Origin: a virus | Taxonomy: Duplodnaviria > Caudoviricetes | Strand: one strand, 5' to 3' | Length of the DNA: 62,309 nucleotides | Virus record (IMG/VR): IMGVR_UViG_3300022929_000020 | Location: 1-62,309 of that record | Shown here: positions 937 through 60,375 of the stretch, one piece after another | Layout of the letters: each line of letters begins with the position of its first letter | Numbering within the stretch: position 1 is the stretch's first letter | Notes under the pieces: model-generated | Databases searched by the model: none | What the model saw: the letters and a program-made list of their open reading frames with translations, nothing else | Told to the model about the DNA's origin: nothing | Program-made: the position numbers and the translations under genes

Positions 937-965
937 CAACGCAATTGCGATGGCGTCTGGATAGT
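937..965 (+). promoter_or_regulatory. Early promoter-like motif, copy 4
   Basis: caa-cgcaat-tgcga-tggcgtc-tggatagt; directly upstream of tRNA-like element 1. Confidence 0.6.
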
Positions 966-974
966 ATATATACC

Positions 975-1019
975 AAGTCACAACGGTTAGTGTAGGTTCG
1001 ATTCCTACGGTGACTTCCA
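975..1019 (+). ncRNA. Anticodon-less tRNA-like element 1
   Basis: aagtcac/gtgactt stem; T-arm gtagg-TTCGATT-cctac; ends in CCA, whose A is the A of ATG 1019. Confidence 0.8.
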
Positions 1020-1201
1020 TGAGTAAAGTAAAATTTCAACACAAAGCAATCGTTACTATAAGTGATGTGGCGATCAAAACAATAGTAGCAACAGTAACAA
1101 CAGCACTAGTTGGTGCAGTGGGTTTGGCAGTTATCGCAGCGGTTTCCGACGTAGCTCCAAAGTTTATCTACGATCTCGATATCATGTGCAATGCAATGTA
1201 G
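1019..1201 (+). CDS. Small membrane protein
   Basis: Hydrophobic stretch IVATVTTALVGAVGLAVIAAV. Confidence 0.7.
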   Translation: MSKVKFQHKAIVTISDVAIKTIVATVTTALVGAVGLAVIAAVSDVAPKFIYDLDIMCNAM

Positions 1202-1216
1202 AGATCCTCACGATCA

Positions 1217-1266
1217 AACTCTTCTCTGGTGAGTAGCATGTAGTTCGATTCTACACAAGAGTTCTA
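1217..1266 (+). ncRNA. Anticodon-less tRNA-like element 2
   Basis: aactctt/aagagtt stem; T-arm tgtag-TTCGATT-ctaca; ends in CTA overlapping ATG 1266. Confidence 0.8.
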
Positions 1267-1424
1267 TGAGTATATTAAAAGCAGAGCAAATTGCAAGTGG
1301 ACACTTGTATGCTCAAGAGTATGAAATTATCGAAGCGTGGCAAATGCTTCACAACGAGTATTTAAAAGGTAACTTTGATTACAGTTACTCTTTGTTTGAA
1401 ATCTTAAAGAATCAAGAAAAATGA
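1266..1424 (+). CDS. Hypothetical protein (52 aa)
   Basis: MSILKAEQIASGH...KNQEK; ATGA overlap with the next gene. Confidence 0.7.
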   Translation: MSILKAEQIASGHLYAQEYEIIEAWQMLHNEYLKGNFDYSYSLFEILKNQEK

Positions 1425-1516
1425 GTAGAGAAGATTTAAAAGAAACAATTGGGCTAGTAGTAGCCGTAGGTGGATTATTATTTTTCGTACACTTCTTATT
1501 GACAGTGTTTGCATGA
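1421..1516 (+). CDS. Small single-TM protein (31 aa)
   Basis: MSREDLKETIGLVVAVGGLLFFVHFLLTVFA; ATGA overlaps at both ends. Confidence 0.65.
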   Translation: MSREDLKETIGLVVAVGGLLFFVHFLLTVFA

Positions 1517-1803
1517 GTAATTGGGATCGATTGATGAATGAAGCCAAGAAAATGGAACAATTGCAAGAAATAAAGCAAGAGTATTTTGGCGATCGTAAGT
1601 TGACCAATGAAGAAAACAGAATTTTATACTTCATTCTTCATGAGAGAAACAAACAAAATATGAAAGAACATACTTTACAGGAAGTCGCCGATGACATCAC
1701 AGGAATGATTGGATCACTGGCTTACCTTATTGAATCAGAAGCTTTAGACGTTACTAATCTAATGGACAGATTGGAAGCTATCAGAGATAAGATTGCTTCA
1801 TGA
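1513..1803 (+). CDS. Hypothetical protein (possibly two fused ORFs)
   Basis: Internal ATG at 1660 follows a 23-bp direct repeat. Confidence 0.65.
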   Translation: MSNWDRLMNEAKKMEQLQEIKQEYFGDRKLTNEENRILYFILHERNKQNMKEHTLQEVADDITGMIGSLAYLIESEALDVTNLMDRLEAIRDKIAS

Positions 1804-1818
1804 GAGAAACAAACAAAA
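1636..1818 (+). repeat. 23-bp direct repeat pair cttcatgagagaaacaaacaaaa
   Basis: Copies at 1636-1658 and 1796-1818. Confidence 0.85.
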
Positions 1819-1838
1819 AACAATGAGTGATCGATAGT
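1810..1838 (+). promoter_or_regulatory. Early promoter-like motif, copy 5 (degenerate)
   Basis: caa-acaaaa-aacaa-tgagtga-tcgatagt. Confidence 0.55.
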
Positions 1839-1855
1839 ATAACAAAGAAAACGAT

Positions 1856-2038
1856 ATGAAATTAACAGCAAAAGAAAGAGATTTGATACTGCAGTGCTTG
1901 CTAAAGCAAATTGAAAGCAATGAAGTAGTGTTAATTGACTTCGGTCACAATGAGTTTATTCGTGGTCGAGCGCACGCTAAGATCATGGAGTTAGAAGAAT
2001 TAATTACAAAAATAGAAAATGACACTAGAACAGTTTGA
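1856..2038 (+). CDS. Hypothetical protein
   Basis: ORF in the early cluster. Confidence 0.7.
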   Translation: MKLTAKERDLILQCLLKQIESNEVVLIDFGHNEFIRGRAHAKIMELEELITKIENDTRTV

Positions 2039-2228
2039 AGAATTATCAGTAGAAGAGATGATGTATCACCATGACGGTTGGTATATGATGAGTGACGATC
2101 ACTCTAAGTATGAGCAAGGCGTATGGCAGCGTAACATTATCGAAGATCGAGTAGCAAACAAAGGCGGCTGGACAAAGGATCTTGTAGAGCTTTGGAACGC
2201 AAGCTATAATCCACCAAAACAATTATGA
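2019..2228 (+). CDS. Hypothetical protein
   Basis: Overlapping ORF in the early cluster. Confidence 0.75.
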   Translation: MTLEQFEELSVEEMMYHHDGWYMMSDDHSKYEQGVWQRNIIEDRVANKGGWTKDLVELWNASYNPPKQL

Positions 2229-2515
2229 ATAAAAAAGTAAGATTTCAAGTAGACTCGTTCTTTCCTGTTACTAGGATAGACGTAGAAATAGAGACATGGC
2301 GAGACAGTAAAGGCGAAGTGTCAGGTTGTTTTGAGTTTTATGACTTAAGAACTAATGGCGAAGACATATACGCTGAAGGCGGTCTTTGGTTTCAAGAGGA
2401 TCAAGGCGGTCTTATTCTATCTGACTATGATGGTGTATTTGAAATACCAATGTTTATACTTGAAAAACTAAGCGACGAGTTTGGTGTAAACGTTGAAGAC
2501 CACTTAGATATATAA
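2225..2515 (+). CDS. Acidic hypothetical protein
   Basis: ATGA overlap; AEGGLWF and DYDGVF motifs. Confidence 0.8.
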   Translation: MNKKVRFQVDSFFPVTRIDVEIETWRDSKGEVSGCFEFYDLRTNGEDIYAEGGLWFQEDQGGLILSDYDGVFEIPMFILEKLSDEFGVNVEDHLDI

Positions 2516-2583
2516 CGCGTCTCTTGACCGAGACAGGAGTGCTACCCAGCGCGAAGAAGCCAGTTAGTCGAGGCATGGGTTGA

Positions 2584-2642
2584 TAGCGAGGAAATTGGTT
2601 CCGCCGTATGGCAAGGAGGTTCGACTCCTCCCTCGCTACCTA
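2584..2642 (+). ncRNA. Anticodon-less tRNA-like element 3
   Basis: Perfect 7-bp tagcgag/ctcgcta acceptor stem; T-arm ggagg-TTCGACT-cctcc; discriminator C then CTA overlapping ATG 2642. Confidence 0.85.
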
Positions 2643-2929
2643 TGACAGAAAAATATAATGGATACACTAACTACGCTACATGGCGTGTTAATTTAGAGAT
2701 AGTAGAGCAAATAGATATTGAATTTGCAGTAGAAGAAGATCTTCGTTTTGACGCAGATATGGTTAAAGAATGGGTCGAGTATGCAGTATTTGGCGATGAA
2801 GATCCAGGTAATTTAATGTCTAGTTATGCGGACTCGTTTTTAAGTGAAGTGAATTATTACGAGTTAGCTAGTGATTTAAACGAAGAAATAGAAGAGCGTA
2901 TCAAATATAATACGACAAGTGATCGATAA
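2642..2929 (+). CDS. Acidic phage protein with YNGxTNYxTW N-terminus
   Basis: N-terminal motif typical of small early phage proteins. Confidence 0.8.
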   Translation: MTEKYNGYTNYATWRVNLEIVEQIDIEFAVEEDLRFDADMVKEWVEYAVFGDEDPGNLMSSYADSFLSEVNYYELASDLNEEIEERIKYNTTSDR

Positions 2930-2930
2930 T
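2902..2930 (+). promoter_or_regulatory. Early promoter-like motif, copy 6
   Basis: caa-atataa-tacga-caagtga-tcgataat. Confidence 0.75.
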
Positions 2931-2940
2931 AATTACGAAT

Positions 2941-3102
2941 ATGGACGAACATTTTGACAGATTAATCAGAGAAATTAAAGATGCGATCGATCTATACAAG
3001 ATCGGTGTGCAAGACGGAGAGCGTACAATAGCTAGCATCTACATGAGTGACATGTGGATTGCAAAGAAAATCAGAGAAAACGAACGAAAAGAAAAGAAAT
3101 GA
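2941..3102 (+). CDS. Hypothetical protein (53 aa)
   Basis: MDEHFDRLIREIK...KEKK, directly after the promoter motif. Confidence 0.7.
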   Translation: MDEHFDRLIREIKDAIDLYKIGVQDGERTIASIYMSDMWIAKKIRENERKEKK

Positions 3103-3311
3103 AGATATGCAAGTGCGGGGACGCTATCCATCCAGTAAGAATTAAGTTGAACTATCCAACATGTGTAAAGTGTTCTACAACAGAGCCTTATGGCGCAGTT
3201 CAAATAGTTAACCACAAAACAGGTAATGAGTTTCAATTCTTACCTAAATCTCAAGCAGACGCTATCAATAAGATGGGCGAACGCAAAGGTTATGGCACTT
3301 GCCTAAGATAA
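3099..3311 (+). CDS. C4 zinc-finger protein (DksA/TraR-type finger)
   Basis: CKCGDAIHPVRIKLNYPTCVKC. Confidence 0.65.
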   Translation: MKICKCGDAIHPVRIKLNYPTCVKCSTTEPYGAVQIVNHKTGNEFQFLPKSQADAINKMGERKGYGTCLR

Positions 3312-3318
3312 CCTACAT

Positions 3319-3405
3319 GGGCGTGAATTGGTAAGTCAACACAACTCGATCGAAAATCATCTCGAGTGTGTTGTAACGCAGGTTCGATTCCTGCCACGTC
3401 CACTA
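3319..3405 (+). ncRNA. tmRNA tRNA-like-domain mimic (element 4)
   Basis: gggcgtg/cacgtcc acceptor stem with G3.U70 and A73; stemless D-loop; long helix caacac-a-actcga/tcgagt-gtgttg; T-arm gcagg-TTCGATT-cctgc; then CTA. Confidence 0.85.
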
Positions 3406-3408
3406 ATT

Positions 3409-3669
3409 ATGGAAATAAGAATAAATAAAGATGCACAAGAAAAGCAGCAGCGAGAAGAGCTAAACAGAGTTATTGTTAGAGCTAAAACGTATGCTAATGC
3501 AGGTGTAGAGTTTTTTGACTTCAAAAGACAAATAGCGATCGGTTTATCTCCTTATGAATTAATACAAATAGTAGAGAAAGAAACTAATGGCACAGTATTT
3601 TGCGAGCAAAGATTCAAAGTAACATTGAAAGAATTCTGCGACACAATAACGTTCACCATAAAGAAATAA
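3409..3669 (+). CDS. Hypothetical protein
   Basis: ATG 4 nt after element 4; the longer track ORF runs through the RNA element. Confidence 0.75.
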   Translation: MEIRINKDAQEKQQREELNRVIVRAKTYANAGVEFFDFKRQIAIGLSPYELIQIVEKETNGTVFCEQRFKVTLKEFCDTITFTIKK

Positions 3670-6052: not shown

Positions 6053-6256
6053 ATGAATATGAGTTATTGCCGTTTTGAAAACACGGCCAAAGCAATGAGA
6101 GACTGTTTGTATGCGATCCATGATGGTGATCTATACGACTTCAGTACACAAGAGTTAATATACTTCAGAAAGTTTTTTGAGATGGCACAAGAGATCTTAG
6201 ATAACGAAGAAGTTAAAGAAAGAATGTTAGAATGGTACTCAGAAAATGCCGAATAA
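6053..6256 (+). CDS. Conserved small phage protein (MSYCRFENT motif)
   Basis: Recognisable N-terminal motif. Confidence 0.75.
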   Translation: MNMSYCRFENTAKAMRDCLYAIHDGDLYDFSTQELIYFRKFFEMAQEILDNEEVKERMLEWYSENAE

Positions 6257-6680
6257 AAAGAAATTAGACGAGACATACATGAACGTAGCCTACCAAATAG
6301 CTGGGCTAAGTAAATGTAAACGAAGAATAGTTGGTGCCATTATAGTCAAAGATAATAATATACTTTCCTTTGGCTACAATGGTACACCAGCCGGAATGGA
6401 TAACTGCTGCGAAGAAGATACTGGTAACGGATTATATACCAAGCGGGTAGTACTACATGCAGAAGCTAATGCAATAACTAAAGTAGCTAGAAGCACTATG
6501 TCTAGTACAGGCGCTACTTTATATACTACTACTTCTCCATGTGCAGAGTGTGCAAAGCTGATCATTCAGGCAGGAATTAAACGCGTAGTATTTCACGAAG
6601 AGTACCATGCATCTAAGCAAGCATTTGACCTCTTTTCAGAGACAGGTGTTAAAGTTAAACAATTAAAATACGACGAGTAG
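6246..6680 (+). CDS. dCMP deaminase
   Basis: GYNGTP, HAEANAI and PCAECAK zinc-binding motifs. Confidence 0.93.
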   Translation: MPNKKKLDETYMNVAYQIAGLSKCKRRIVGAIIVKDNNILSFGYNGTPAGMDNCCEEDTGNGLYTKRVVLHAEANAITKVARSTMSSTGATLYTTTSPCAECAKLIIQAGIKRVVFHEEYHASKQAFDLFSETGVKVKQLKYDE

Positions 6681-6688
6681 TCGATAAT
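6660..6688 (+). promoter_or_regulatory. Early promoter-like motif, copy 9
   Basis: caa-ttaaaa-tacga-cgagtag-tcgataat. Confidence 0.75.
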
Positions 6689-6704
6689 AAAACAAAATAA
6701 AATT

Positions 6705-6908
6705 ATGTTTTTAAAATTAAAATTATCAAAAAGAGAAAGAATCCAACTTAAGAAAGTTGAAGAAGAATTAGCAATACGAATGATCGTTGCGGCACAGGAG
6801 GTTTTAGAAGAAGAAAAACTAGCCTTCGTGGATACATTGAGCCAAGAGGATTACACAGACTTGCAAGAGTTAGTAATTGTTAATGCAATATCAAATGTAA
6901 TACTGTAA
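6705..6908 (+). CDS. Hypothetical protein
   Basis: ORF between two motif copies. Confidence 0.7.
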   Translation: MFLKLKLSKRERIQLKKVEEELAIRMIVAAQEVLEEEKLAFVDTLSQEDYTDLQELVIVNAISNVIL

Positions 6909-6937
6909 CAAATAAAATACGACGTAGCGCCGATAAC
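6909..6937 (+). promoter_or_regulatory. Early promoter-like motif, copy 10
   Basis: caa-ataaaa-tacga-cgtagcg-ccgataac. Confidence 0.75.
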
Positions 6938-6950
6938 AAAATAAAACAAT

Positions 6951-7793
6951 ATGATAAAACCAATGTTAGCACATAAGTTCGACGAGTCACGCATTGACTG
7001 GAACGATAAGGTATTCTTACAGCCTAAGCTAGATGGTGTGCGTTGTTTGTTTACTAAAGACGGAGCATTCTCTCGTACAGGTAAACAGTTCATGAATGTA
7101 CAACACTTGCAAGATGCGCTTAAAATATTCTTTGATATTAATCCAAATGCGATACTCGATGGCGAGCTTTACAACCATAGACTGAAAGCAGACTTTGAAA
7201 GAATTATTTCACTAGTACGCAAACAAAAGCCAACGGATATAGACAGAGCTGATGCTCAGGAAATGATCCAGTTTCACGTGTATGATCTTATAGACGGTAC
7301 AGATAAGTCTTACGAGCAACGTAGACTCATGATAAACCGTTTCTTAGGCGAGCACGCATGGATGTTCTTTGGCGTAAGGCTTGTTGATACCAAAGAAATA
7401 CTACGTATTGAACAAGCAGAGTTCTTGCATAAGAAAAACCTAGAACTAGGCTTCGAAGGCTCGATATTACGTCTAAATACTCCGTACAAACACGGCAGAT
7501 CATTCGGCTTGATGAAGATGAAAGACTTCTCAGACACAGAAGCTACAATCATCGACTTCGAACCAGGCAAAGGTAAGCGCAAAGGCACGTTAGGCAAGTT
7601 CATTATGATGGACAGCGAAGGTGTTAAGTTCGGTTGCCCGCCAGGCAAAGGCTTCACGCACGATCATCTAAAGCTAATGCTTAAAAACGTCAACGACTAC
7701 ATTGGCAAGACAGCTACATTTACGTACTTCCAGCGTACTAAAGCTGGTAGCTACAGGCATCCACACTTTAAAGGCTTACGAGACTATGAGTAG
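6951..7793 (+). CDS. lig: ATP-dependent DNA ligase
   Basis: KLDGVR (motif I), DGELY, FHVYDL, EGSILR, MKMK, C-terminal OB fold. Confidence 0.93.
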   Translation: MIKPMLAHKFDESRIDWNDKVFLQPKLDGVRCLFTKDGAFSRTGKQFMNVQHLQDALKIFFDINPNAILDGELYNHRLKADFERIISLVRKQKPTDIDRADAQEMIQFHVYDLIDGTDKSYEQRRLMINRFLGEHAWMFFGVRLVDTKEILRIEQAEFLHKKNLELGFEGSILRLNTPYKHGRSFGLMKMKDFSDTEATIIDFEPGKGKRKGTLGKFIMMDSEGVKFGCPPGKGFTHDHLKLMLKNVNDYIGKTATFTYFQRTKAGSYRHPHFKGLRDYE

Positions 7794-7842
7794 CATTAAA
7801 GAAACAAAAACGTGACTATGAGTAGTATTAAAGAAACAAAAA
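7779..7842 (+). repeat. 32-bp tandem duplication
   Basis: cg(a/t)gactatgagtag(c/t)attaaagaaacaaaaa x2. Confidence 0.9.
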
Positions 7843-7855
7843 GAAAATATATTAT

Positions 7856-8059
7856 ATGAATAGAAACAAAGAAATATGGGAAGGTTGGACAGTAGGAGAT
7901 TTTATAGACGAACTAAACATAACTTTTGAAACAGCTATGTGGATGTTTAATTCTAAACAAGATGTAAAAGAATGGGTAATCTCAGAGCAACCTTACTACA
8001 AAAAGAATATACCTGAAGTTACAAAATACTTTATAGATAAATATGAAGAAAGTATATAA
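7856..8059 (+). CDS. Hypothetical protein
   Basis: ORF with IWEGWTVGDFI and QPYYKK motifs. Confidence 0.75.
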   Translation: MNRNKEIWEGWTVGDFIDELNITFETAMWMFNSKQDVKEWVISEQPYYKKNIPEVTKYFIDKYEESI

Positions 8060-24023: not shown

Positions 24024-27000
24024 TTAATTTCGTCTTTTTGAATCTCTATTTTGACCCATACGTCTTAGTTCTAATAAGCTTTTGCTTTTTGTGAATGAAC
24101 CTCTATACCCTTTGGCTTTTGATTTTTTATTTTTACTTTTCTTTTCTAAGCCAAGCTCCCATTTTTGCCAACCACCTAGTAGCGCTAATCTTTCGTAGAG
24201 CTCTAGCTCTTGACTCAAAGCGTAATCAACGTTGTTTATCTTCTTTATAACACGATCAGCTGGCACGTTTGTAGTAGCAGATATCACGTTGCCTGCAGCT
24301 AGCCAAGCTGGATTATCCAAGCTGAAACCTTTAGTTTCCATTTCTTTTCTGTTCCATTGAACTTCTCTAGCTGCTTGTTGTAGCTTAGATATTTTAGAAG
24401 AAACAGGAGGCGATATTCTAAGTATTTCATTTACGACCTTGTTGTATTTAGGACTTTTCTTTTCTGACTCTTCAATAGCTTTTAATGTTGCATTTTTAAC
24501 AACACTTGTTACAGCTCCTTGAACACCAGCTCCTCTCATTATACCATCTACAACACTGTTAGACATTTTCCATATTCTATCTTCCATCTCTTCTTCGTCG
24601 TCAAAGTCTGCTGCAAACAATGCTGACTGTAGCGACGTGAATATAACGCCCTGTATTACGCTGTAATACATAATCTTTGATAGGTTAGTTTTGAAGTCTC
24701 CTCTATTGTTGGCCAAGTCTAAGCTAGCTTTCTTTATTATTCTGGCGTACTGACTTGGTGTATTAGCAAACGCTAAAACTACACGACCTAAAGGACCAGC
24801 TTGCTGTTGCGATATTCTATCTGGTCTACTAGACTGCTGTGATTCTTCAGCTGCTTCTCTAAAGTCTTCAAACGCTTTTGTTTCGGCTTCTTTCTGAGAC
24901 ATGCCTTCTTTTAAGTAGGTTTTTATTCTGTTTCTATAGAAAGTAGAACCACCAGATGCAATAGCAAATCCGTCAGCAATCTGCGTAGGTAAAAATCCTT
25001 TTTGTAGTAGGTATGCTAACGCACCTTTTGCTCCACCTTTGTTTGCCATTTCCGCAATGTCAGCTTCGTTAACATTAATAGTTAAGTTATCTCTACGTTC
25101 TTTTAAGAAATCTGAATTAAATAAGAACATAAAGTCTTTCCAGTATTGCTTTTGATTTGCGAAAGCGGCTGAAGCCTTAAATACGTTGTTGTCAGACCAG
25201 TTTATAAAGTTAACAGCAGATATAGTCTGAAGTATAGCAGATCTAGTGTTAAAGAACATTATAGCGCCTGTACTACCGTTAACCCAATCTAAAAACTTAC
25301 CAGTCAAAGAATCACCATCGAAGTTTCTATTTTTACCTGACTTCATTCTTTGAAGTATGTTTTCCATAGCGCCTCTATAAGTAGATCCATAAGCAGCTTC
25401 CATCTTGTTTAGATTTTCTTTTGAAAATATAACGTCAACGTTTTGCTGCCACTCTTCCAAGTGCTTAGCGCGTTTAGTAACTTGCAAGGTATTTAGTAGA
25501 TCCGTTGTTATACTTCCAGCCATCCAGCTTTCACCTGGTGTAGCATAGCCATCGCCTTTGGTTATTTCTACTAGTTGGTCCGCAAACACTTGTAACGTAG
25601 CGTCGTTTTCTACATACTTTGTCATGTCAGCTAAGTCTGTTTTGCTAAGACCAGGAACATCAAACCCTTGCTTGTTCCATATGTATATCCTAACGGCCTG
25701 CTCTTTGTTGAATCCTTCGCCTTTGATTTTCTGCTTCAACTTCTTAGGCACAACACCTAGTTGCTTTTTTAAGGCTTTATAATCAGCGGCCAAAGACATC
25801 CTTTCGTTTGCTATATTGTTCATGGCTCTAGTATAAGGATCTAATAAATTCTTTTTGTACCACGCCATTTGGTTTTCACCAAGCTTTCCTTTTGATAGAG
25901 TTGAATACAATAATCCTACGAAGTCCTCAGCTGATGGAGATATAAAGAAATTAAACTTACCCTTACTCACTCCTATTACCTCGGCCTTAGCATCGCTATA
26001 TCTTTTTTCAGAAGCAATACCCGTTTTAGCCTCGAGTATATCGTTGAACTCTTTGTCTAACTTTTCATAAGCATCTTTATATACAATACGTTCTTTAGAT
26101 TTTACATCTAAAACTTTCATTGCATCTTGAACAGCTTTCACATTCTTATATGCGTCATCTGTAAAGTAAAAATCGTTGTAGCCTTCTGCAGCCTTATCAA
26201 CCATCCATTGCGCCTTAGCTTCAGGTGAACTGTTTGCTAAGCCAGTTATGTTTTCTAATGGTATCTCGTAACCAAGACCTTTTAAAAACTCATATATTGC
26301 CGATGCTGAATTAGCAGGTCTAGCTGTTAACACAAACACATCTTTGTTACCAAACTTTTTAATTGCTTTGTCCAACTTGGCAATTAAAGGGCCAGGTTCA
26401 CCACCGACAACTTTGCTGAAATCGCTAAAGTCAAACTCAGCTCCTTGCTTTAATAGTTCGTCTCCACGCTTAGCAAATTCAGTGGCATCTATTTGGGTTT
26501 CAGTACCATCAGGCATAGTTACTCCTACCACGCTCTTGGTGGTTGCAAGAGTATCGTCAAAGTCAAACACAGATATACCTTTTACTTTAGCTTTAACATT
26601 TCTAGCGTTACGTAAGGCTTTGTCTCTATTGGAAAGATCATTTAATATTTTTTCATTAGATAGGTCTTTTTTCTTAGAGAATTTAGTTGTTACATTTTTT
26701 AATCTACTTTGATTTGCAGCTGCCGCTTCCTCTGTTTTTAACTTTATATGTTCGTTTAAATATTCTTGATGGTTGCTATATTTTTCCTCTCCTTTTATTT
26801 TATCAAGTAATAATCTATTTTGAAGATTTAAATTATCTACTGTTTCATACTCTTTAGGTAAAGTAACGCCTATCTCTTTAGCCCAAGATTCGTTTGTTTC
26901 AATGTTTACTATATCATTGAAGTTCATCCTAGGAAGGTTTTCTATATTCTCGGTTAAAATATTTGCAGTAAGCATTCTTATAGCCCCAACGTTTTCATCA

Positions 27001-30000
27001 AACAAGCTGGATCCTTCAGCTAGTGTTGCGTCAAGCTTCGCTTTGTCTAGTATAACGTCATATTGTTTGCCTAGTACGACTTGAAAGAAGTTTTTTCTAA
27101 CAGCACTCATTGCTTCTTTAGCTGTATTGGTTAAAATACCATGTATTAAATAACCACCAATCACAGAGGCTGGAACCGTATGTTCTTCTCTTATTAACTC
27201 TCCTTTGTTCTGTTCTGGCTTACCATATTCCCCTGCGTATTTAGGGTTCATGGTTTTGTATTTAAAAGGTGCAGATATTTTAATTACGCCAGATGTAGCT
27301 TGGTAAGCTTTAGTTATGAACTTAACAGCGGCATCAGCAGATAATTTTTTGTTATTAACTGCATCAGCTAACTTAATAGTCATTTCCTCTAGAACATCTA
27401 AATTAGTAGCAAACTGTTCATTAGCCTCCTTAGTTCCAGCTTTTTTAACTGAAACTCTTTTAGGTTTTTTAGCTTCTAACTCAGTATTTTGTCTTGCTAG
27501 TTCTTCTGCTCTTCTATAAGCAGGGTCTTCAGTTCCGTAATATATATCACTTCTATCCGGTGTGAAGTCTCCAGATCTAGATTTTTTTATTTTGTCTGCT
27601 TTTTCTTTATCTTCTACTAGGTTTCCTAATTGATTCTTTTTAACAGGAACTTTTACAAACTCATTGTTTTTTAAAGCGTAGTATTTAAATTTAAGTTTGT
27701 TTGAGCCTTTGGCGGCTTTTTCTTTTTTACTAAACTCTACAAATTTACCATCTTTATTAAACTCGCCGTAAACGGTTTTTACTCCAAAGTTAGTAAACTT
27801 AGCTGATCTAAACATTTCCAATGTTATGCCTCCAAGTTTTATTATTTCTTCTATTTCAGAGTGCAGTATGTCTATTTCTTTAGTTGTGTTTATATCTTTT
27901 AAATCAACTCCGTTGTCTTTTAAAACTTTATAAACATCTTTTATAGTTCTAGTTGATCCAAGTTCTTTTTGTACTTTTTGTACTTTTTTAGATAGCATAA
28001 CTCTAGGTTTACCAGCAGCAACATCAGCAACCTCTTGCTTTGTAGCTCCAGCTGCTTCCATCTCTTGTCTAACCAAGGTATTTGCAGCTAGAGTAGAATA
28101 AGTCTTAGCCATGCCTTTCAATAGCTGACCAATAGGGCTTCGTAACTCTCCTTTAGGTAATATATTAAGTTCTCCTTTTGGAGTTATGCCAATATCTTTT
28201 TTGATCTTATCTATGATTTCTTTAGAAACAACACCTCTAAACTCAGGCTTCAATCTTTTAACGGCTGTCTGACTTGTCAATCCTTTGCTTCTACCTTTTG
28301 GACTAGTTAGTTTACCAGTTGGATCAATGAAGTCTTCGTAGAAATAATCAAGTATACGCTTAGGCAATCCTAGGCCTGTGCCTTGAACTCCTTTAGATAC
28401 ATCTATTGTTTCGATACCTATTTGAGTTTCAGGTAATGCTATATTTGTTTCTGGTAGTATCTTGACGAATTTATCTAAATTGTCAGCTTTAAAAAAGAAT
28501 TGTTGTATAGCCCTTGCTTCATTTACAGATCCAAGGTTGGCTGCAGATTCTGTGATCTTTTTAGCTGGTATACCTATAGCTTGCTCACCTACTTCACCAG
28601 CATATTGCTTTGCTACTTTCTTGAATGTTAAGCCTTTGCCAGGTTTGTCACTTAATTTTATTTCAGCTGGCACGCCAGTGAATTTAAGTGGATTTATTTT
28701 TGGCTTTTCTTTTGTTTCAACTTGTTCTTCTACTGCTGTTTCAACATCTGCGATTTGTTTAGTTGACTCATCTATACTAGTTTCTTTTGATCTACGCTCA
28801 GACTCTTGGAATAATTTTTTCTTGGCATCTAGCTTTCCAAACGCGGTGTTAGCAAATATAAACTCACCAAATCCTTCGCGGCCAATGATTGATCCATCTT
28901 TTCGTTTAGCTTGAGGATCAAAGTTCATTAACCTCTCAAGCACAGAGTCGACAGCTAGCTCAGCTTCCATAGCGCTAGAAGTTCTAGACTTTATGTAGTT
29001 ATTTATAGCACCGCCAGGATTCATAGCGGACTCATATACTTTAGTGAAAGATCTATCAGATAGAAACTGCTCTTTTGTTTCTATTCCTTCTGGTATTAAA
29101 TTGTTTATTTCTTCAAGTACCGTAGATTTAGAATACATTGCTCTTCTACTGTCTACGCCTACACCTTTGTACACTTTATCTAAAAAGTCCTGTGGTAAGT
29201 CTTTGCCGTACTCTATAGCTTCTGTGTTTATTTCATAAAGCTTGTCTCCAAAATCTTGCTTGTATTTAGCTAGACTTTCTTGCACTTGATCGTAAGTCTT
29301 TGTTACTATTTTGTCAGGAAGAGATCTTTCTTTTCTAGCCTTGTTTCTATCCAGGGCAGTTTGTAAAGGAGTGTTAGCGACAACCATGGATACGTCAAAT
29401 CCAGCGTTTTCGAGCTCTTTGACTTTCTTCATGGTTGCGTTATACGATGCGCCAGTCCCGTCTATAACCATATCATTTTTATTAGAAACGTATTGGTTAA
29501 ACTTTTCTTTAGCTGCTTTAACGGCGTTTGCACCAAGTTTAGATCTTAACGATCTTTGCTCTGCTGTGTACTCAGACTCTTCAGCAGGTAGACCAGCTTC
29601 TTCTTTCATAGCTTCCAATGCTATGTCTTGGTTTACAACTTTGAAACCTCTTCTACCTAGCTTAAGCCCTTTACCAACATTAGTCTTACCAGCGCCAGGG
29701 CCACCAACCATGAATATAGCTTTAGGTTTTTCTGCTGCTGACTCTTTAACCTTAGTCTCAGTCTCTTTAATTGTAGGTTCAGAAACTAAACGACCTTCTG
29801 CTGTTTGCTTTAGTAACTCGCTTTGCGCTTTTGTAAATCTGCCTTTAGTTACACTTTTATTATAGTCTTTTATGAAATTGAAAACATCATTAGAGTTATT
29901 GAAGTTTATCTTGGTGAAGCCTACGGACTGTAATACTCTTCTTATTGATCCACCTATTTTTTGAAACAAGCTTTCTTCAAACTCTATTTCTCCAGTTGCA

Positions 30001-32102
30001 ACAGCATCGGCAAATAAAGTAAGTGTCTCTTCGGGTTTTGCATCTGAGCTGTATCTACTAAGTCTATCTTTGAATTCGCTTTGCTCTAGTATAGATGGAT
30101 CTATTTTTTCTATTTCTTTTTCCAACGAAGCTGCTAATGATTTTGCTACTTCTTGGTTTTCACCAACAGTTTTAAACAATACAGCATGTAACAGCTCATG
30201 TGATGCTACGTTAACTGCTTGATCTTTGTTTGCTACTTCCTTATTAATAACAATAGTTTGCTTGCCATCAGATCTTTGAGCTATGTAGCCTTGTTCAAAT
30301 GAAGCTTTCTTATCTATGTCTTGCTCTTCAGCTATAGCGTTTGCTTCTTCTGTGTTCTCTGCAGTTATTATTTCTACGTTGTCAATACCTTCTACTATCT
30401 TAGCTACATTTTTAGTAGTTTTAAGAGTTTTGTTTTCAATCCCTATTTGCGCTAGGCGTTCATCTACTTGTTTTAATCTATTTATATCATCTGAAACAAT
30501 CGCTTTGTTATCACCAGCGTCTTGAACTCGCTGATTAATATCTGCTCTTTCTTTTATTAAAGATACCGTTTCTTCAGAAAGTTCTTTTTCTATTCCTAGT
30601 TTTTCTGATATATTTACAGCAGCCTTAGTCCTGTTAAAGTTTGCTTGTATATCTTTAGACTCTTGCTCTGTTATTTCGCCTAGCTTTTCTTTTATTTGTA
30701 ACTCGTTTTTAAGTACGTTTTCAGTATACTTGTTTTTAGCTATATCTATAGACTCTAAGTCAGAAGCTCCAGAAATAAAAGCATCAGATACGTTGTTGTA
30801 GTTTGTTTTATTTAATACTCTATTAACTATTTTATCTTCTGTTATTGATTTAGATAGTTCTATAGTGTTACTAGCTGCCTTTATGCCACCACCTGTAATA
30901 AAAGACAGGAAGAAAACATCAGCGAACTCTCCCCAAGATTCGCTAGTTTTAAAGTCTTTATTTAAGTATATGTCATCGGCTAGCTTATTAATAACTTCGG
31001 TGCTAACTTCGGATGCTCCTTCTTTGCCTCCTTCTTTTATTACTCCTTTGGATATCTCAGTTAAGTTCTTTTTAATTATTGCTCTTGGCTTGTTAGCTAA
31101 TGACTTAAATAAAGACTTTCCAAGTCTTCTAGTTGTTATTTCTAACAAGGCTTCTGATGCTCCTCTAGTTGCACTATAAGCTATTAAACCAGCGTCTATT
31201 TTTTTACCTTCTTTTATAGCTTCCTCAGAAGCTGAAGCCGCAGACTGTAGACCTATAGTAGGTAAACCAACTACAGGTACAAATGCTTCACCTATGGAAG
31301 GCAACAAACCACCTATGTTGCTAAACGTTCTAGCAAAACCTCTAGAGTAATTACCTATTTGGAAATCTTCTACTATACCTTCTGTGTACTGTGGTAGTCC
31401 TTTTTCTATTTCTTGTATTTCTATATCTAGTTCTTTTGCTTTTTTAGAAGCTTCTATAGAAGGTGTCAAGCCTATAGCTTGAGCATATATATCTTGAGCT
31501 TTAGGACTTAGTCTATCAAAGCCTTGTTTTTGTTCATCAGTCATAAACAATCTTCTAATAGCCATGTTTGCCCTGTTAGCTAGTAAAGGTATTTTAAGTA
31601 TATCTGATTCTATTTGTAAAGCACTAGCTTTTAATCTTTCTCCAAATGTTTTAACTTCAGTTAAATTACTAGGTCTCTTTTTTACTTTTATATCTACAGG
31701 TGCTATCTTTTCTATTTCTACGTCTCCTTCTTCATCAATAATCAAACCCATATTAGCTAAATCTGATTTTGAATACTTACCAGACGTCAGCATTTTTTCT
31801 AAACCAGGATATTTTTCTAGCCCAGGCAGAAACACTTCTTTAGAAACTTCAGTTTTAGGTTTTGGTTGTTTTTCTTCGTCAACTTCAAATCCATATAAAT
31901 TACCTGTAGGTGACTCCAATGAACCACCTTCCAAGTTGGAGACCATATCGTTTGTAGATCCCGTGCTTGTCTCCTGTTTCAAGGGATCTGTGGTCTTTTT
32001 TGGCGGGTCTGTATCGTTATCAAACTCATCTAGCTTTGCAAGAATTTCTTCGTCAGTTAAGTTTTGATTAACTAAGTCTTGTATGTATTGCTGTCTTTCC
32101 AT
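24024..32102 (-). CDS. Giant (2692 aa) probable ejected/internal virion polyvalent protein with zincin, P-loop kinase and HAD phosphatase domains
   Basis: HELLH (30186-30200); GGPGAGKT...DGT...RNKAR (~29170-29730); FDFDDTL...LTAR...TDD (~26090-26590); last gene of the tail/ejection operon. Confidence 0.8.
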   Translation of the reverse strand: MERQQYIQDLVNQNLTDEEILAKLDEFDNDTDPPKKTTDPLKQETSTGSTNDMVSNLEGGSLESPTGNLYGFEVDEEKQPKPKTEVSKEVFLPGLEKYPGLEKMLTSGKYSKSDLANMGLIIDEEGDVEIEKIAPVDIKVKKRPSNLTEVKTFGERLKASALQIESDILKIPLLANRANMAIRRLFMTDEQKQGFDRLSPKAQDIYAQAIGLTPSIEASKKAKELDIEIQEIEKGLPQYTEGIVEDFQIGNYSRGFARTFSNIGGLLPSIGEAFVPVVGLPTIGLQSAASASEEAIKEGKKIDAGLIAYSATRGASEALLEITTRRLGKSLFKSLANKPRAIIKKNLTEISKGVIKEGGKEGASEVSTEVINKLADDIYLNKDFKTSESWGEFADVFFLSFITGGGIKAASNTIELSKSITEDKIVNRVLNKTNYNNVSDAFISGASDLESIDIAKNKYTENVLKNELQIKEKLGEITEQESKDIQANFNRTKAAVNISEKLGIEKELSEETVSLIKERADINQRVQDAGDNKAIVSDDINRLKQVDERLAQIGIENKTLKTTKNVAKIVEGIDNVEIITAENTEEANAIAEEQDIDKKASFEQGYIAQRSDGKQTIVINKEVANKDQAVNVASHELLHAVLFKTVGENQEVAKSLAASLEKEIEKIDPSILEQSEFKDRLSRYSSDAKPEETLTLFADAVATGEIEFEESLFQKIGGSIRRVLQSVGFTKINFNNSNDVFNFIKDYNKSVTKGRFTKAQSELLKQTAEGRLVSEPTIKETETKVKESAAEKPKAIFMVGGPGAGKTNVGKGLKLGRRGFKVVNQDIALEAMKEEAGLPAEESEYTAEQRSLRSKLGANAVKAAKEKFNQYVSNKNDMVIDGTGASYNATMKKVKELENAGFDVSMVVANTPLQTALDRNKARKERSLPDKIVTKTYDQVQESLAKYKQDFGDKLYEINTEAIEYGKDLPQDFLDKVYKGVGVDSRRAMYSKSTVLEEINNLIPEGIETKEQFLSDRSFTKVYESAMNPGGAINNYIKSRTSSAMEAELAVDSVLERLMNFDPQAKRKDGSIIGREGFGEFIFANTAFGKLDAKKKLFQESERRSKETSIDESTKQIADVETAVEEQVETKEKPKINPLKFTGVPAEIKLSDKPGKGLTFKKVAKQYAGEVGEQAIGIPAKKITESAANLGSVNEARAIQQFFFKADNLDKFVKILPETNIALPETQIGIETIDVSKGVQGTGLGLPKRILDYFYEDFIDPTGKLTSPKGRSKGLTSQTAVKRLKPEFRGVVSKEIIDKIKKDIGITPKGELNILPKGELRSPIGQLLKGMAKTYSTLAANTLVRQEMEAAGATKQEVADVAAGKPRVMLSKKVQKVQKELGSTRTIKDVYKVLKDNGVDLKDINTTKEIDILHSEIEEIIKLGGITLEMFRSAKFTNFGVKTVYGEFNKDGKFVEFSKKEKAAKGSNKLKFKYYALKNNEFVKVPVKKNQLGNLVEDKEKADKIKKSRSGDFTPDRSDIYYGTEDPAYRRAEELARQNTELEAKKPKRVSVKKAGTKEANEQFATNLDVLEEMTIKLADAVNNKKLSADAAVKFITKAYQATSGVIKISAPFKYKTMNPKYAGEYGKPEQNKGELIREEHTVPASVIGGYLIHGILTNTAKEAMSAVRKNFFQVVLGKQYDVILDKAKLDATLAEGSSLFDENVGAIRMLTANILTENIENLPRMNFNDIVNIETNESWAKEIGVTLPKEYETVDNLNLQNRLLLDKIKGEEKYSNHQEYLNEHIKLKTEEAAAANQSRLKNVTTKFSKKKDLSNEKILNDLSNRDKALRNARNVKAKVKGISVFDFDDTLATTKSVVGVTMPDGTETQIDATEFAKRGDELLKQGAEFDFSDFSKVVGGEPGPLIAKLDKAIKKFGNKDVFVLTARPANSASAIYEFLKGLGYEIPLENITGLANSSPEAKAQWMVDKAAEGYNDFYFTDDAYKNVKAVQDAMKVLDVKSKERIVYKDAYEKLDKEFNDILEAKTGIASEKRYSDAKAEVIGVSKGKFNFFISPSAEDFVGLLYSTLSKGKLGENQMAWYKKNLLDPYTRAMNNIANERMSLAADYKALKKQLGVVPKKLKQKIKGEGFNKEQAVRIYIWNKQGFDVPGLSKTDLADMTKYVENDATLQVFADQLVEITKGDGYATPGESWMAGSITTDLLNTLQVTKRAKHLEEWQQNVDVIFSKENLNKMEAAYGSTYRGAMENILQRMKSGKNRNFDGDSLTGKFLDWVNGSTGAIMFFNTRSAILQTISAVNFINWSDNNVFKASAAFANQKQYWKDFMFLFNSDFLKERRDNLTINVNEADIAEMANKGGAKGALAYLLQKGFLPTQIADGFAIASGGSTFYRNRIKTYLKEGMSQKEAETKAFEDFREAAEESQQSSRPDRISQQQAGPLGRVVLAFANTPSQYARIIKKASLDLANNRGDFKTNLSKIMYYSVIQGVIFTSLQSALFAADFDDEEEMEDRIWKMSNSVVDGIMRGAGVQGAVTSVVKNATLKAIEESEKKSPKYNKVVNEILRISPPVSSKISKLQQAAREVQWNRKEMETKGFSLDNPAWLAAGNVISATTNVPADRVIKKINNVDYALSQELELYERLALLGGWQKWELGLEKKSKNKKSKAKGYRGSFTKSKSLLELRRMGQNRDSKRRN

Positions 32103-58566: not shown

Positions 58567-58820
58567 TCCAATATAACTATGTCACTATATTTAATCACAT
58601 AGTAATAATCATTATTAAACTCTATACCGTGACCTGCGTGTTTATCATACCATACCACATCACCTTCAGTAACATGCCCAGCATTCTCACCTGCACTCAC
58701 GATCTTACCTCTTAAATACCTAACGTCTTCATTTTGGCTTTCACTCAAGACAAAACCGCTAGTAGATTTAGGTTCTTCTTTTAACTTGTCGATGACTATG
58801 TAATAATTAACTGCTTTCAT
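58563..58820 (-). CDS. groES: Co-chaperonin GroES
   Basis: KSTSGFVL mobile loop, GKIVSAG, GDVVWY.K.AG. Confidence 0.88.
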   Translation of the reverse strand: MKAVNYYIVIDKLKEEPKSTSGFVLSESQNEDVRYLRGKIVSAGENAGHVTEGDVVWYDKHAGHGIEFNNDYYYVIKYSDIVILE

Positions 58821-60375
58821 TAGTCCTCATATTACTTATTACACAATCTGCTGAAATTATAGTGGAAACCACAGAAACAGCGTTTTTTAATGCAGACTTA
58901 GTAACGAGCACTGGATCTATAATACCAGCGCCTACCATATCTACGATCTCTCCAGTTACTACATTGATACCTTGTCCTTCATCTAGCTCTTTTACTACAT
59001 CAAGGTCAGCATTGCTTAATATAGTCATAAGCGGAGCTTTGATAGCATCTAGCAAAATCTTTTCACCTAAACCTTCAGGTTCAATAAATTCCGATGCGTT
59101 ATATAAAGCAACGCCACCACCAGGTACGATGCCTTCTTTTAGTGCAGCCTTGGTAGCATGAATAGCGTCTTCAACCCTGTCTTTCTTTTCTTTAAGTTCA
59201 ACCTTAGAGTCCGCACCAACGCGTACAACTCCTACGCTACCTGCTAGTATCGCTAATCTTTCCTCTAGCTTTTTCTTCATGAAAGGATTTTTATCCTCTC
59301 TAGCTATAAGATCTTTTACTTGTGCGATACGATCGTTTAAATCTTTATCAGCTTTATCTACAGTGAATACTGTATGCTTGCTATCAGTTACAACTTTCTT
59401 AGCTGTACCTAAAGCATTTGTATCAATTAAATCAAAGTCATCACCAAGCTCTTCTGAAATAACCTTAGCTCCAGTAATGATAGCCAAGTCTTCAATGGCA
59501 TCATCTTTAGTAGGGCCAAAACCTGGTAGATCAATAAAGTTTACTTTGATGTTTCCTTTTACTTTGTTAGTTAATAATGCTGCAGTAGGTTGTTGCTCTA
59601 GATCTCCTACTATTAATAAGGCTTTACCTTTTTTAATAACATACTCTAAGATATTTTGGATCTTACGAATGTTAGGTATCGGTGACTTACTGATTAAGAT
59701 ATATGGATCTTCTAGCTCGGCTACTCCTTTGTCCTTGTCTGTGATGAGGTAGTTTGATTTTAAGCCACAATCAATTTGAACACCGTCAACCACGTCAACG
59801 TATGTTTCATTGGTTGGTGACTCTTCCATCATTACTACACCATCAGTTCCTACTTGCAAGTAAGCCTCAGAAATAATTTTTCCAAGCTCACTATCGTTAT
59901 TACAACTAATAGCACTAACATGCTGAAGTAGTTCTTCTCCCACTTCAATAGTACTGTCCTCAAGGTATTTGTTGACTTTTTCCACGCCAGACTTAATACC
60001 TTCTTTAATTTCTCTAATACTTTTATTTTCATTATATTCATCTGACACTTTATTCAACAATGAGTGAGCAAGGACGGTAGCTGTAGTAGTACCGTCACCT
60101 GCTTCTCTCACAGTGTTGTTGGCTGCCTCTTTAATAAGTGTTGCACCTATGTTTTCAACCGGATCATATAAGACTACGCTTTCCGCAACGGTTACTCCAT
60201 CTTTTGTAATTACCGGTTTACCCATGGCGTCTTCATAAATAACACATTTACCAGAAGCGCCGAGTGTCGATTTCACTGCGTCAGTTAGCTTACTGACACC
60301 AGTCATGATTTTAGTTTTTGCCGCATCGCCAAAGTTTAAATCCTTGACAATTTGGCTTGGTTGATTATATTCCAT
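58807..60375 (-). CDS. groEL: Chaperonin GroEL
   Basis: [36 protein letters not shown]. Confidence 0.96.

Follow-up and report, generated by a model that had tools for sequence, protein, structure and literature searches.

Anticodon-less tRNA top-half mimics between the early genes of an uncultured phage: candidate transcript-punctuation elements, one with a tmRNA-like body and alanine identity

A tRNA-like fold can serve as a signal for the maturation of another RNA: in mascRNA/MALAT1 and in the tRNA-like precursors of herpesviruses it signals RNase P or RNase Z and so defines the ends of a neighbouring RNA. Tailed phages make tRNA-like stable RNAs as well, such as species 1 and 2 of T4 and RNA1-3 of T5. 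In plant mitochondria, t-elements are described, in the passages of Forner et al. (2007, PMC1920247) that deal with them, as non-canonical tRNA-like folds with a conserved T-arm motif that lie in mRNA precursors and the borders of which are 5′ or 3′ ends of mRNAs; cutting by RNase Z and RNase P is proposed there, with experimental support for cox1, ccmC and nad6, and for rps4 the 5′ end of the mRNA is listed at +2 of the start codon. These t-elements are, by analogy, the closest precedent for the four elements, W1-W4, that are described here from the early region of an uncultured marine phage (IMG/VR record IMGVR_UViG_3300022929_000020). The DNA analysed, referred to below as the window, is the whole viral contig (62,309 bases, 97 % complete), in which the early genes lie on the + strand over about the first 20 kb and the structural genes on the − strand.

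The four elements are given below; R1 denotes a covariance model that was seeded with W1 and eight relatives (9 sequences) and the structure of which was written by hand.

976..1019, + strand: W1, minimal tRNA top-half mimic, from sequence and fold; R1 52.5 bits
1218..1266, + strand: W2, minimal mimic, from sequence and fold; R1 31.4 bits although outside the seed
2584..2642, + strand: W3, mimic, from sequence, fold and copies in relatives
3319..3405, + strand: W4, mimic of the tRNA-like domain of transfer-messenger RNA (tmRNA), from a match to the Rfam tmRNA model and a 22-member family

In all four, a connector with an unpaired, GG-containing part leads to a 5 bp T-stem closing UUCGA(U/C)U, the 3′ acceptor strand stands directly next to it, and this strand is followed by one discriminator base and C(C/U)A. 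W1 pairs AGUCACA with GGUGACU (six pairs and A·G at 7:66) and has a connector of 9 nt with GG, the T-arm GUAGG-UUCGAUU-CCUAC, discriminator U73 and the tail CCA. The acceptor strands of W2, ACUCUUC and CAAGAGU, likewise form six pairs, with C·C at 7:66; its connector of 14 nt is followed by UGUAG-UUCGAUU-CUACA and the tail U-CUA. All seven pairs are formed in W3 (UAGCGAG/CUCGCUA), in which a connector of 24 nt, including a 3 bp hairpin, precedes GGAGG-UUCGACU-CCUCC and the tail C-CUA, and in W4 (GGGCGUG/CACGUCC), where they include G3·U70. The connector of W4 (52 nt) comprises a stemless GG loop, a long variable helix and AAC, and is followed by GCAGG-UUCGAUU-CCUGC, discriminator A73 and the tail CUA. 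At the DNA level the T-arm motif is GGTTCGAYTCC in W1, W3 and W4, and AGTTCGATTCT in W2. The minimum free energy folds of W2, W3 and W4 are the acceptor and T-arm fold; in that of W1 the T-arm is present and part of the acceptor strand is paired in another register. Folding z-scores are weak (−1.3 for W1, +0.25 for W2), so that folding energy alone would miss these two elements.

The motif GTTCGAYTC was counted four times in the window, where 0.53 would be expected and four were reached in one of 100 shuffles; all four sites are on the + strand, inside 2.4 kb and in gaps between open reading frames (ORFs). Direct reading therefore bears out what the initial annotation had proposed, namely four anticodon-less elements with different stems and an acceptor and T-arm architecture, and these are the only GTTCGAYTC sites in 62 kb. 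The same annotation had expected no complete tRNA. ARAGORN called no tRNA and no tmRNA in the window, and hence no genuine tRNA of this phage; no Rfam family matched the window at gathering scores, and the search with Rfam tRNA at E values up to 10 gave nothing except a weak tRNA-Sec match to W3 (19.7 bits, E 1.3). Of the parts of a canonical tRNA, the seven-position acceptor stem with discriminator and the T-arm with its loop are present (7:66 being mismatched in W1 and W2), and the D-arm stem and an anticodon arm with a 7 nt loop are absent from connectors of 9, 14, 24 and 52 nt.

Relatives were obtained as 81 loci from uncultured phage contigs of 60-70 kb, by using first a DNA ligase query and then the 70-residue zinc-finger protein encoded next to W4. 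Loci L001-L003, which are pieces of the window, were excluded throughout, and L024, which is from the same contig as L005, was excluded from the R1 match counts. MAFFT alignments of mixed element types misaligned the 5′ strands, and no counts were drawn from them. In a pairing-blind test on unique TTCGANN sites (82 sources), five of five flanking pairs were formed at 104 of 436 sites on the gene strand and at 0 of 325 on the other strand. A complement to all seven acceptor positions was found at most 160 nt upstream of 43 of the 93 distinct non-tRNA T-arms, compared with 8.3 % for shuffled 3′ strands. GG stands inside the first nine connector bases in 66 of 84 elements (18 % by chance), which fits an elbow of T-loop and D-loop.

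In the window, R1 matched only the four sites: W1 and W2 at full length, W3 by its T-arm only, and W4 at 3364-3405, where the 5′ strand of the model was placed on the 3′ side of the internal helix and not on the true strand at 3319. Among the 81 sources, 46 matches were obtained in 41, every one on the + strand. In the resulting alignment (36 distinct rows), which was fitted to the model and hence favours pairing, 93.3 % of the cells were paired, compared with 57.2 % after shuffling and at most 52 % with partners slid; changes on both sides were found in 12 of 12 pairs, and the covariation score was 0.864 versus 0.205, with 0 of 500 shuffles reaching 0.864. The T-stem of W2 (UGUAG/CUACA) is UGCAG/CUGCA in L006, a compensatory change from U-A to C-G that is found in the copies of both L006 and L004. 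At 2897-3146 of L004 a mimic and a small gene are duplicated in tandem, with the acceptor stem and the T-stem both re-paired. The stems and connector of W3 are identical in L004 and L006, with differing flanking coding sequence, and among the loci of relatives no copies of W3 were seen beyond these two. Between W1 and a relative in an RNA library there are 3 changes in 125 nt, compared with 10 in 72 and 9 in 34 in the flanks.

Pairing, covariation, restriction to the gene strand and compensatory changes in close relatives together establish the elements as selected structures and not decayed tRNAs. Selection on structure had been proposed in the initial annotation, which named alignment as decayed copies of complete tRNAs as a refutation; both points are upheld by loci of relatives that keep paired, covarying stems. 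It is scarcely credible that they are decaying, functionless remnants of phage tRNA genes, although genuine tRNAs, most of them Met-CAT, are encoded in the same early region of relatives and the elements could plausibly have arisen from tRNA genes by internal deletion: all 12 pairs have been kept through two-sided changes in the 36 distinct sequences, the elements are confined to the gene strand, W1 has changed less than its flanks, and duplicates re-pair their stems. As the sole explanation, remnants are refuted by the flanking-pair strand test, the strand bias of R1 and the two-sided pair changes.

Two further candidates were rejected. Remnants of attP or integration sites were ruled out by the presence of both acceptor strands, the four copies and the lack of any integrase seen, and intrinsic terminators by the lack of a U-run in the elements.

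The two ORFs of the L004 duplicate are paralogous, starting MNIYTAEQV.. and MSILTAEQI.., and each has its own mimic upstream. The genes behind one and the same mimic sequence are not the same in the window as in L004, and for this reason the elements may be recombination points or may travel with gene cassettes.

W4 proved to be of another kind. With a permissive threshold it matched the Rfam tmRNA model (RF00023), although its 34.2 bits (E 1.9e-11) fall short of the gathering score (47); the match covers both ends only, and in place of 314 interior positions of the model there are 27 unaligned bases. The loci of five of six relatives matched as well (31.5-49.0 bits), that of L043 (49.0) above the gathering score and the four others at 31.5-38.8, and the 47 nt form of the family in L016 gave no tmRNA match at E 0.01. 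The 22 aligned sequences of the W4 family have an acceptor of the GGGCGUG type and a loop resembling A(A/U)AUGGU(A/U)AG; next comes an interior helix, 15 to over 100 nt long, that differs in sequence in almost every member, and the 3′ end is made up of AAC, the T-arm, a discriminator that is A in nearly every row, and either CUA or CAA. Pair 4:69 covaries (CG 18, AU 2, GC 2), as do two T-stem pairs. The wobble pair G3·U70 is present in 21 of the 22 members; W1-W3 have U3-A70 or G3-C70 and, the weak tRNA-Sec match of W3 aside, gave no Rfam relative.

G3:U70 with A73 is the alanine identity set, and W4 has the features of a minihelix substrate of alanyl-tRNA synthetase (AlaRS), that is G3:U70, A73 and a stacked acceptor/T helix. 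The retention of a wobble where a Watson-Crick pair would be stabler points to selection for recognition by AlaRS, and such recognition would imply a role as a free RNA and not as a cut site alone. The sequences of the W4 family point in the same way to an RNA that is free and probably charged. A search of 185,579 species genomes for the exact 25-base 3′ half of the family gave no tRNA or tmRNA gene and only 12 contigs of metagenome-assembled genomes with mixed labels, which are suspected to be mis-binned phage DNA; because it is missing from bacterial tRNA and tmRNA genes, the W4 family is not a recent copy of a host gene. Judged by sequence, the elements are thus of two kinds, the minimal minihelices W1-W3 and the tmRNA-like W4 with alanine identity, and the single fold class under which all four had been placed must be given up.

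A third mimic family was seen in L022, L027, L041, L055, L066, L072 and L078, around 6200-7900. It has the constant 3′ part ..GACG(A/G)GUA UGAGG-UUCGA(A/U)U-CCUCA CUAGUUA C and long, variable 5′ interiors, and in L066 and L078 its element lies directly upstream of a W4-type element.

For the W4 family only, a tag-less mini-tmRNA offers a possible, if tentative, explanation: charged with alanine, the RNA would bind SmpB and EF-Tu and would either rescue stalled ribosomes without tagging or block trans-translation in the host. This would suit the alignment of the tmRNA model to both ends of W4, the matches in the relatives with one above the gathering score, the near-constant G3·U70, the stemless GG loop and the variable helix that replaces the anticodon arm. 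Complete phage tmRNAs are known from the relevant parts of PMC9004378, and a reduced tmRNA of jakobid mitochondria from those of PMC3590771. What W4 retains, as the only one of the four elements, is the tRNA-like domain (G3·U70, A73, a stemless analogue of the D-loop and the T-arm); the mRNA-like or message domain, resume codon, tag frame and pseudoknots are absent, ARAGORN reports neither a tmRNA nor a tag, and W4 itself scores below the gathering threshold. Pfam and PHROG scans of 47 ORFs revealed no SmpB-like gene, nor any tRNA-processing, CCA-adding or RNA-ligase gene, the small ORFs being only partly covered. Furthermore, G3:U70 with A73 suits any substrate of AlaRS and not tmRNA alone, and charging and SmpB binding are predictions only.

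For the elements as a group, the reading that we favour, with moderate confidence, is that host tRNA enzymes cut the early RNA at the element borders, separating its units and releasing top-half RNAs. Minihelices of acceptor stem and T-arm are substrates of bacterial RNase P, RNase Z and the CCA-adding enzyme, and of AlaRS if they contain G3:U70; the conserved coaxial acceptor/T helix, the T-loop, its GG partner, the single-stranded tail and the trailer are what those enzymes read. The tRNA-maturation enzymes of the host would treat the mimics as pre-tRNAs, with RNase P cutting at the 5′ border and RNase Z, or an equivalent 3′ pathway, after the discriminator, and the early polycistronic RNA would thereby be divided at unit boundaries. 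At W1-W3, cutting would take away a stable helix, which otherwise extends as far as −4 of the AUG, and would leave an mRNA with a 2 nt leader. The small top-half RNAs set free could receive CCA, and those of the W4 type would probably be charged by AlaRS and act in trans, for example on SmpB-dependent ribosome rescue. The fold, strand, position, conservation, covariation, G3·U70 and common trailer of the elements are observations, upon which the enzymatic steps and the physiological role are proposed.

When the four elements are compared with t-elements, the same features are found: a tRNA-like fold with a T-arm motif, a position between ORFs of the same strand and no terminator of their own, none having been found at any of the four in a terminator scan. 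W1-W4 are presumably co-transcribed with the early genes. Because they have no terminator of their own and a promoter-like motif is present only at W1, the elements, whatever their function as RNAs, would have to be cut from operon transcripts, as phage tRNAs are. The motif was found at the following positions:

269, 336, 571, 960, 1833, 2925, 3853 and 6683, + strand: early promoter-like motif, ahead of early gene blocks
939..972, + strand: diverged copy of this motif, core GATAGTAT at 960-967, from comparison with the 7 other copies in the window

Its consensus is roughly ACGA-N2-AGT-N-ATCGATA(A/G)TAT(A/T)A, and a variant in relatives reads AAATACGA...GGATAATA. It is unlike the sigma-70 consensus and also unlike that of Bacteroidota, and its sequence suggests a promoter function; a scan of the window for sigma-70 promoters and terminators gave no excess over shuffles, and the phage encodes a sigma-like protein. 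The diverged copy ends about 3-8 nt before W1. A motif resembling the promoter core was found 11-33 nt downstream of 20 of 105 T-arm elements (60 nt search; background 3.1 %), and such neighbouring motifs indicate that the elements sit at the boundaries of expression units.

At 879-909, directly behind an ORF that ends at 859 and ahead of the promoter-like motif and W1, a hairpin (AGAGGUGAAG / CUUCUACCUCU) followed by UUUUU has the appearance of an intrinsic terminator. The block of this terminator, the promoter-like motif, W1 and the 60-residue ORF behind it is missing in the close relative L004, in the manner of an inserted module.

The ORFs behind the elements encode small proteins with no assigned function; they and the leader in front of W3 are as follows:

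1019..1201, + strand: 60-residue ORF, starting on the last base of W1; no Pfam family
1266..1424, + strand: 52-residue ORF, starting on the last base of W2
2642..2929, + strand: 95-residue DUF7249 ORF, starting on the last base of W3; profile match begins at residue 1
3409..3669, + strand: 86-residue ORF, starting 4 nt after W4
2516..2583 (68 nt), + strand: GC-rich non-coding leader between the stop codon at 2515 and W3, with two predicted hairpins

The last A of W1 is the A of the ATG at 1019, A1266 and A2642 are those of the ATG behind W2 and W3, and the next ATG after W4, at 3409, is 4 nt on. The start codon at 2642 is confirmed by the alignment of the DUF7249 profile from the first residue, and the orthologue of the 52-residue ORF in L004 and L006 is likewise preceded by a mimic. 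L004 has an identical copy of the leader at 2516-2583, which may belong with W3 to one larger RNA; the fold z-score of 2512-2646, which spans both, is only −1.27.

Abutment was counted for 91 distinct non-tRNA elements as an ATG that opens an ORF of at least 35 codons, sought within 120 nt of the discriminator. In 11 of them, including elements of unrelated sequence in L009, L010, L016, L031 and L045, the distance of this ATG from the discriminator is exactly +3. For rough comparison, an ORF-opening ATG follows in the same way after 3.2 % of all CTA triplets on the + strand. In the common register no ATG intrudes further into an element than in abutment, which is a recurrent feature and the closest packing seen, and not a defining one. 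The observation that the final A of an element is the A of the next ATG thus stands for W1-W3, and its elevation to a general property does not.

After the discriminator, the 91 mimics have the trailers CTA (37), CAA (17), AAA (14), TAA (11) and CCA (2), and many of those with AAA or TAA can be read as a 6 bp stem, A and CAA or CTA if the register is shifted by one. An encoded CCA, one of the two tails in the C(C/T)A that had been listed among the features of the elements, is consequently not the rule, and in the RNA-library relative, of about 92 % similarity, that of W1 is CUA (C1018T). Genuine tRNAs were called by ARAGORN in the early regions of relatives (16 calls at 15 loci; 11 Met-CAT, 2 Arg, 1 Ala, 1 Glu and 1 unassigned 'tRNA-???', for example at 6478-6551 of L005). 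The 12 distinct ones in the same loci have the trailer CTA in 7 cases and CAA in 3, and this 3′ context, common to mimics and real tRNAs, speaks for a single route of maturation for both. The terminal pair is G1·A72 or U1-A72 in several of the Met-CAT genes.

Several points weigh against cutting by host enzymes. In 80 of the 91 distinct elements there is no abutment on a start codon, the next ORF being 1-118 nt away or no such ORF being present within 120 nt; production of near-leaderless mRNAs cannot, for that reason, be the general role of the family. A simple cut after the discriminator would leave the conservation of C74 and A76 in the trailer unexplained, and translation of mRNAs with 2 nt leaders by the host remains a premise. 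Many acceptor stems have only six pairs and a mismatch at 7:66, and 48 of 84 do not start with G; both features may make poorer substrates for RNase P. The pairing and covariation values from the R1 alignment are subject to the model fitting mentioned above. Finally, six of the 24 listed sequencing runs were of RNA, in the form of assembled contigs only and in small shares, and when the contigs of four of these were compared with the window they were found to span W1 (800-1118), W2 (1156-1307) and W3 (2466-3301). Contigs cannot show RNA ends, and the bridging ones imply that uncut RNA exists, or DNA carried into the RNA libraries. The first position of one contig is exactly 2516 and the last position of another is 1253; these are likewise contig limits, from which RNA ends cannot be read. 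In several contigs the match is restricted to the 3′ half of W4 (3369-3406), beyond which the interiors are different; these are W4-family relatives in RNA libraries, which is not proof of transcription or processing.

The bridging contigs would also be expected if the elements were left uncut and acted in cis, either by shielding the early mRNAs against exonucleases, as a folded 5′ cap or 3′ end, or as structures that set the translation rate of the abutting gene. W1, a few bases past a promoter-like motif, may be the very 5′ end of a transcript, and the 20 of 105 elements just before the next such motif would be at a 3′ end. For such purposes, however, a plain hairpin would do, whereas the invariant T-loop, the GG partner, the seven-nucleotide acceptor geometry and the tRNA-type trailer are features for tRNA enzymes; a stable helix reaching to −4 should, moreover, hinder initiation and not help it. 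A purely cis-acting, uncut role is hence regarded as quite improbable.

Processing might, on the other hand, serve only to liberate the top halves, and these would work in trans, as decoys or sponges that divert host defences or toxins directed at the acceptor end or elbow of tRNA, for example enzymes by which the 3′ tail is cleaved, extended or pyrophosphorylated. Each phage has several elements with differing acceptor stems, as if several tRNA identities were copied, and the W4 family keeps the AlaRS identity pair. Defences directed against tRNA tails or acceptor stems have been published, as described in parts of the reports on Cas12a3 (PMC12851939), FaRel2 (PMC11559606) and MenT (PMC7450476). 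The window itself encodes, at 24024-32102 (−), a 2692-residue virion-type protein with a P-loop kinase domain (AAA_33 and Zeta_toxin matches, residues ~783-951). Yet no defence or anti-defence gene linked to the elements was found in the Pfam and PHROG scans, in which small ORFs were partly covered; the acceptor stems of W1-W3 have been assigned to no host tRNA, bacterial tRNA and tmRNA genes lack the 25-base 3′ half of the W4 family, and the positions at unit boundaries and start codons would be left unexplained. A decoy function as the explanation of the elements is therefore thought unlikely. Doubtful as a whole, too, is a combined phage 'tRNA punctuation', in which the cuts would switch on the abutting genes, as a start blocked by a helix becomes one with a 2 nt leader, and would also release an alanine-charged, tag-less mini-tmRNA that reprograms or blocks ribosome rescue in the host.

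A flavobacterium is the likely host of the phage. A structural protein is ~34 % identical to proteins of Flavobacterium phages (elemo group) and of a Maribacter phage, and the closest cultured phages are reached through this one protein only (Flavobacterium phage elemo group). Gene leaders in the window are A-rich and have no Shine-Dalgarno-like sequences; in Bacteroidota, Shine-Dalgarno pairing is not used at translation starts. Zero matches were obtained with blastn of the first 8 kb against 50,697 GenBank phage records and with tblastn of the zinc-finger protein beside W4 against GenBank phage records. W4 as a DNA query matched only the T-arms of ordinary phage tRNAs in those records, and R1 had no match in the whole of MT497071.1 (elemo) or of the uncultured MW202828.1 (Manatee Spring). 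With cultured relatives so distant and both scanned records lacking an R1 match, no laboratory system is at hand. Further genes of the window encode a GroEL-type chaperonin (Cpn60_TCP1, E 4e-57) at 58807-60375 (−) and a PhoH-like ATPase at 20877-21557 (−).

If cutting by host tRNA enzymes proves true, transcript punctuation of the organelle type would exist in bacterial viruses, and early gene expression in phages would come under an additional, new level of control. Its importance would be greatest in Bacteroidota, the translation starts of which dispense with Shine-Dalgarno pairing. RNAs of the W4 type (47-125 nt), with the alanine identity set and a tmRNA-like body, would be the smallest natural candidates for a charged, non-decoding phage mimic of tRNA. 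Neither tRNA finders nor Rfam with its curated thresholds detect the mimics, yet roughly half of the related contigs analysed contain them, so that an entire class of RNA genes is overlooked when phages are annotated.

A literature search found no description of anticodon-less phage tRNA mimics; subscription journals, supplements beyond its scope and the older literature on T4 and T5 may hold some. The unusual points are the exact abutment on start codons and a minimal tmRNA-like RNA with alanine identity. Like phage tRNAs and the stable RNAs of T4 and T5, the mimics are small RNAs in early or tRNA regions, predicted to be co-transcribed and dependent on host tRNA processing; they differ in the lack of D and anticodon arms, and the genuine tRNAs in relatives have the trailer of the mimics. 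The mascRNA/MALAT1 and herpesvirus precursors, in contrast, are eukaryotic and nuclear and keep a cloverleaf-like body. With the tRNA-like domain of tmRNA (RF00023), W4 has in common the acceptor with G3·U70 and A73, the stemless GG loop, a helix in the place of the anticodon arm and the T-arm; its interior, however, has 52 nt in place of roughly 300, without tag frame or pseudoknots, and the interior helix differs in every relative, whereas W1-W3 depart from this domain in having no G3·U70. Compared with t-elements, as these are described in the cited passages of PMC1920247, the mimics are likewise tRNA-like folds with a T-arm motif inside protein-coding units; they belong to a bacterial DNA phage and not to an organelle, they are much shorter, with connectors from 9 nt, and are known here from sequence alone, and each genome carries several covarying families of them, one with alanine identity.

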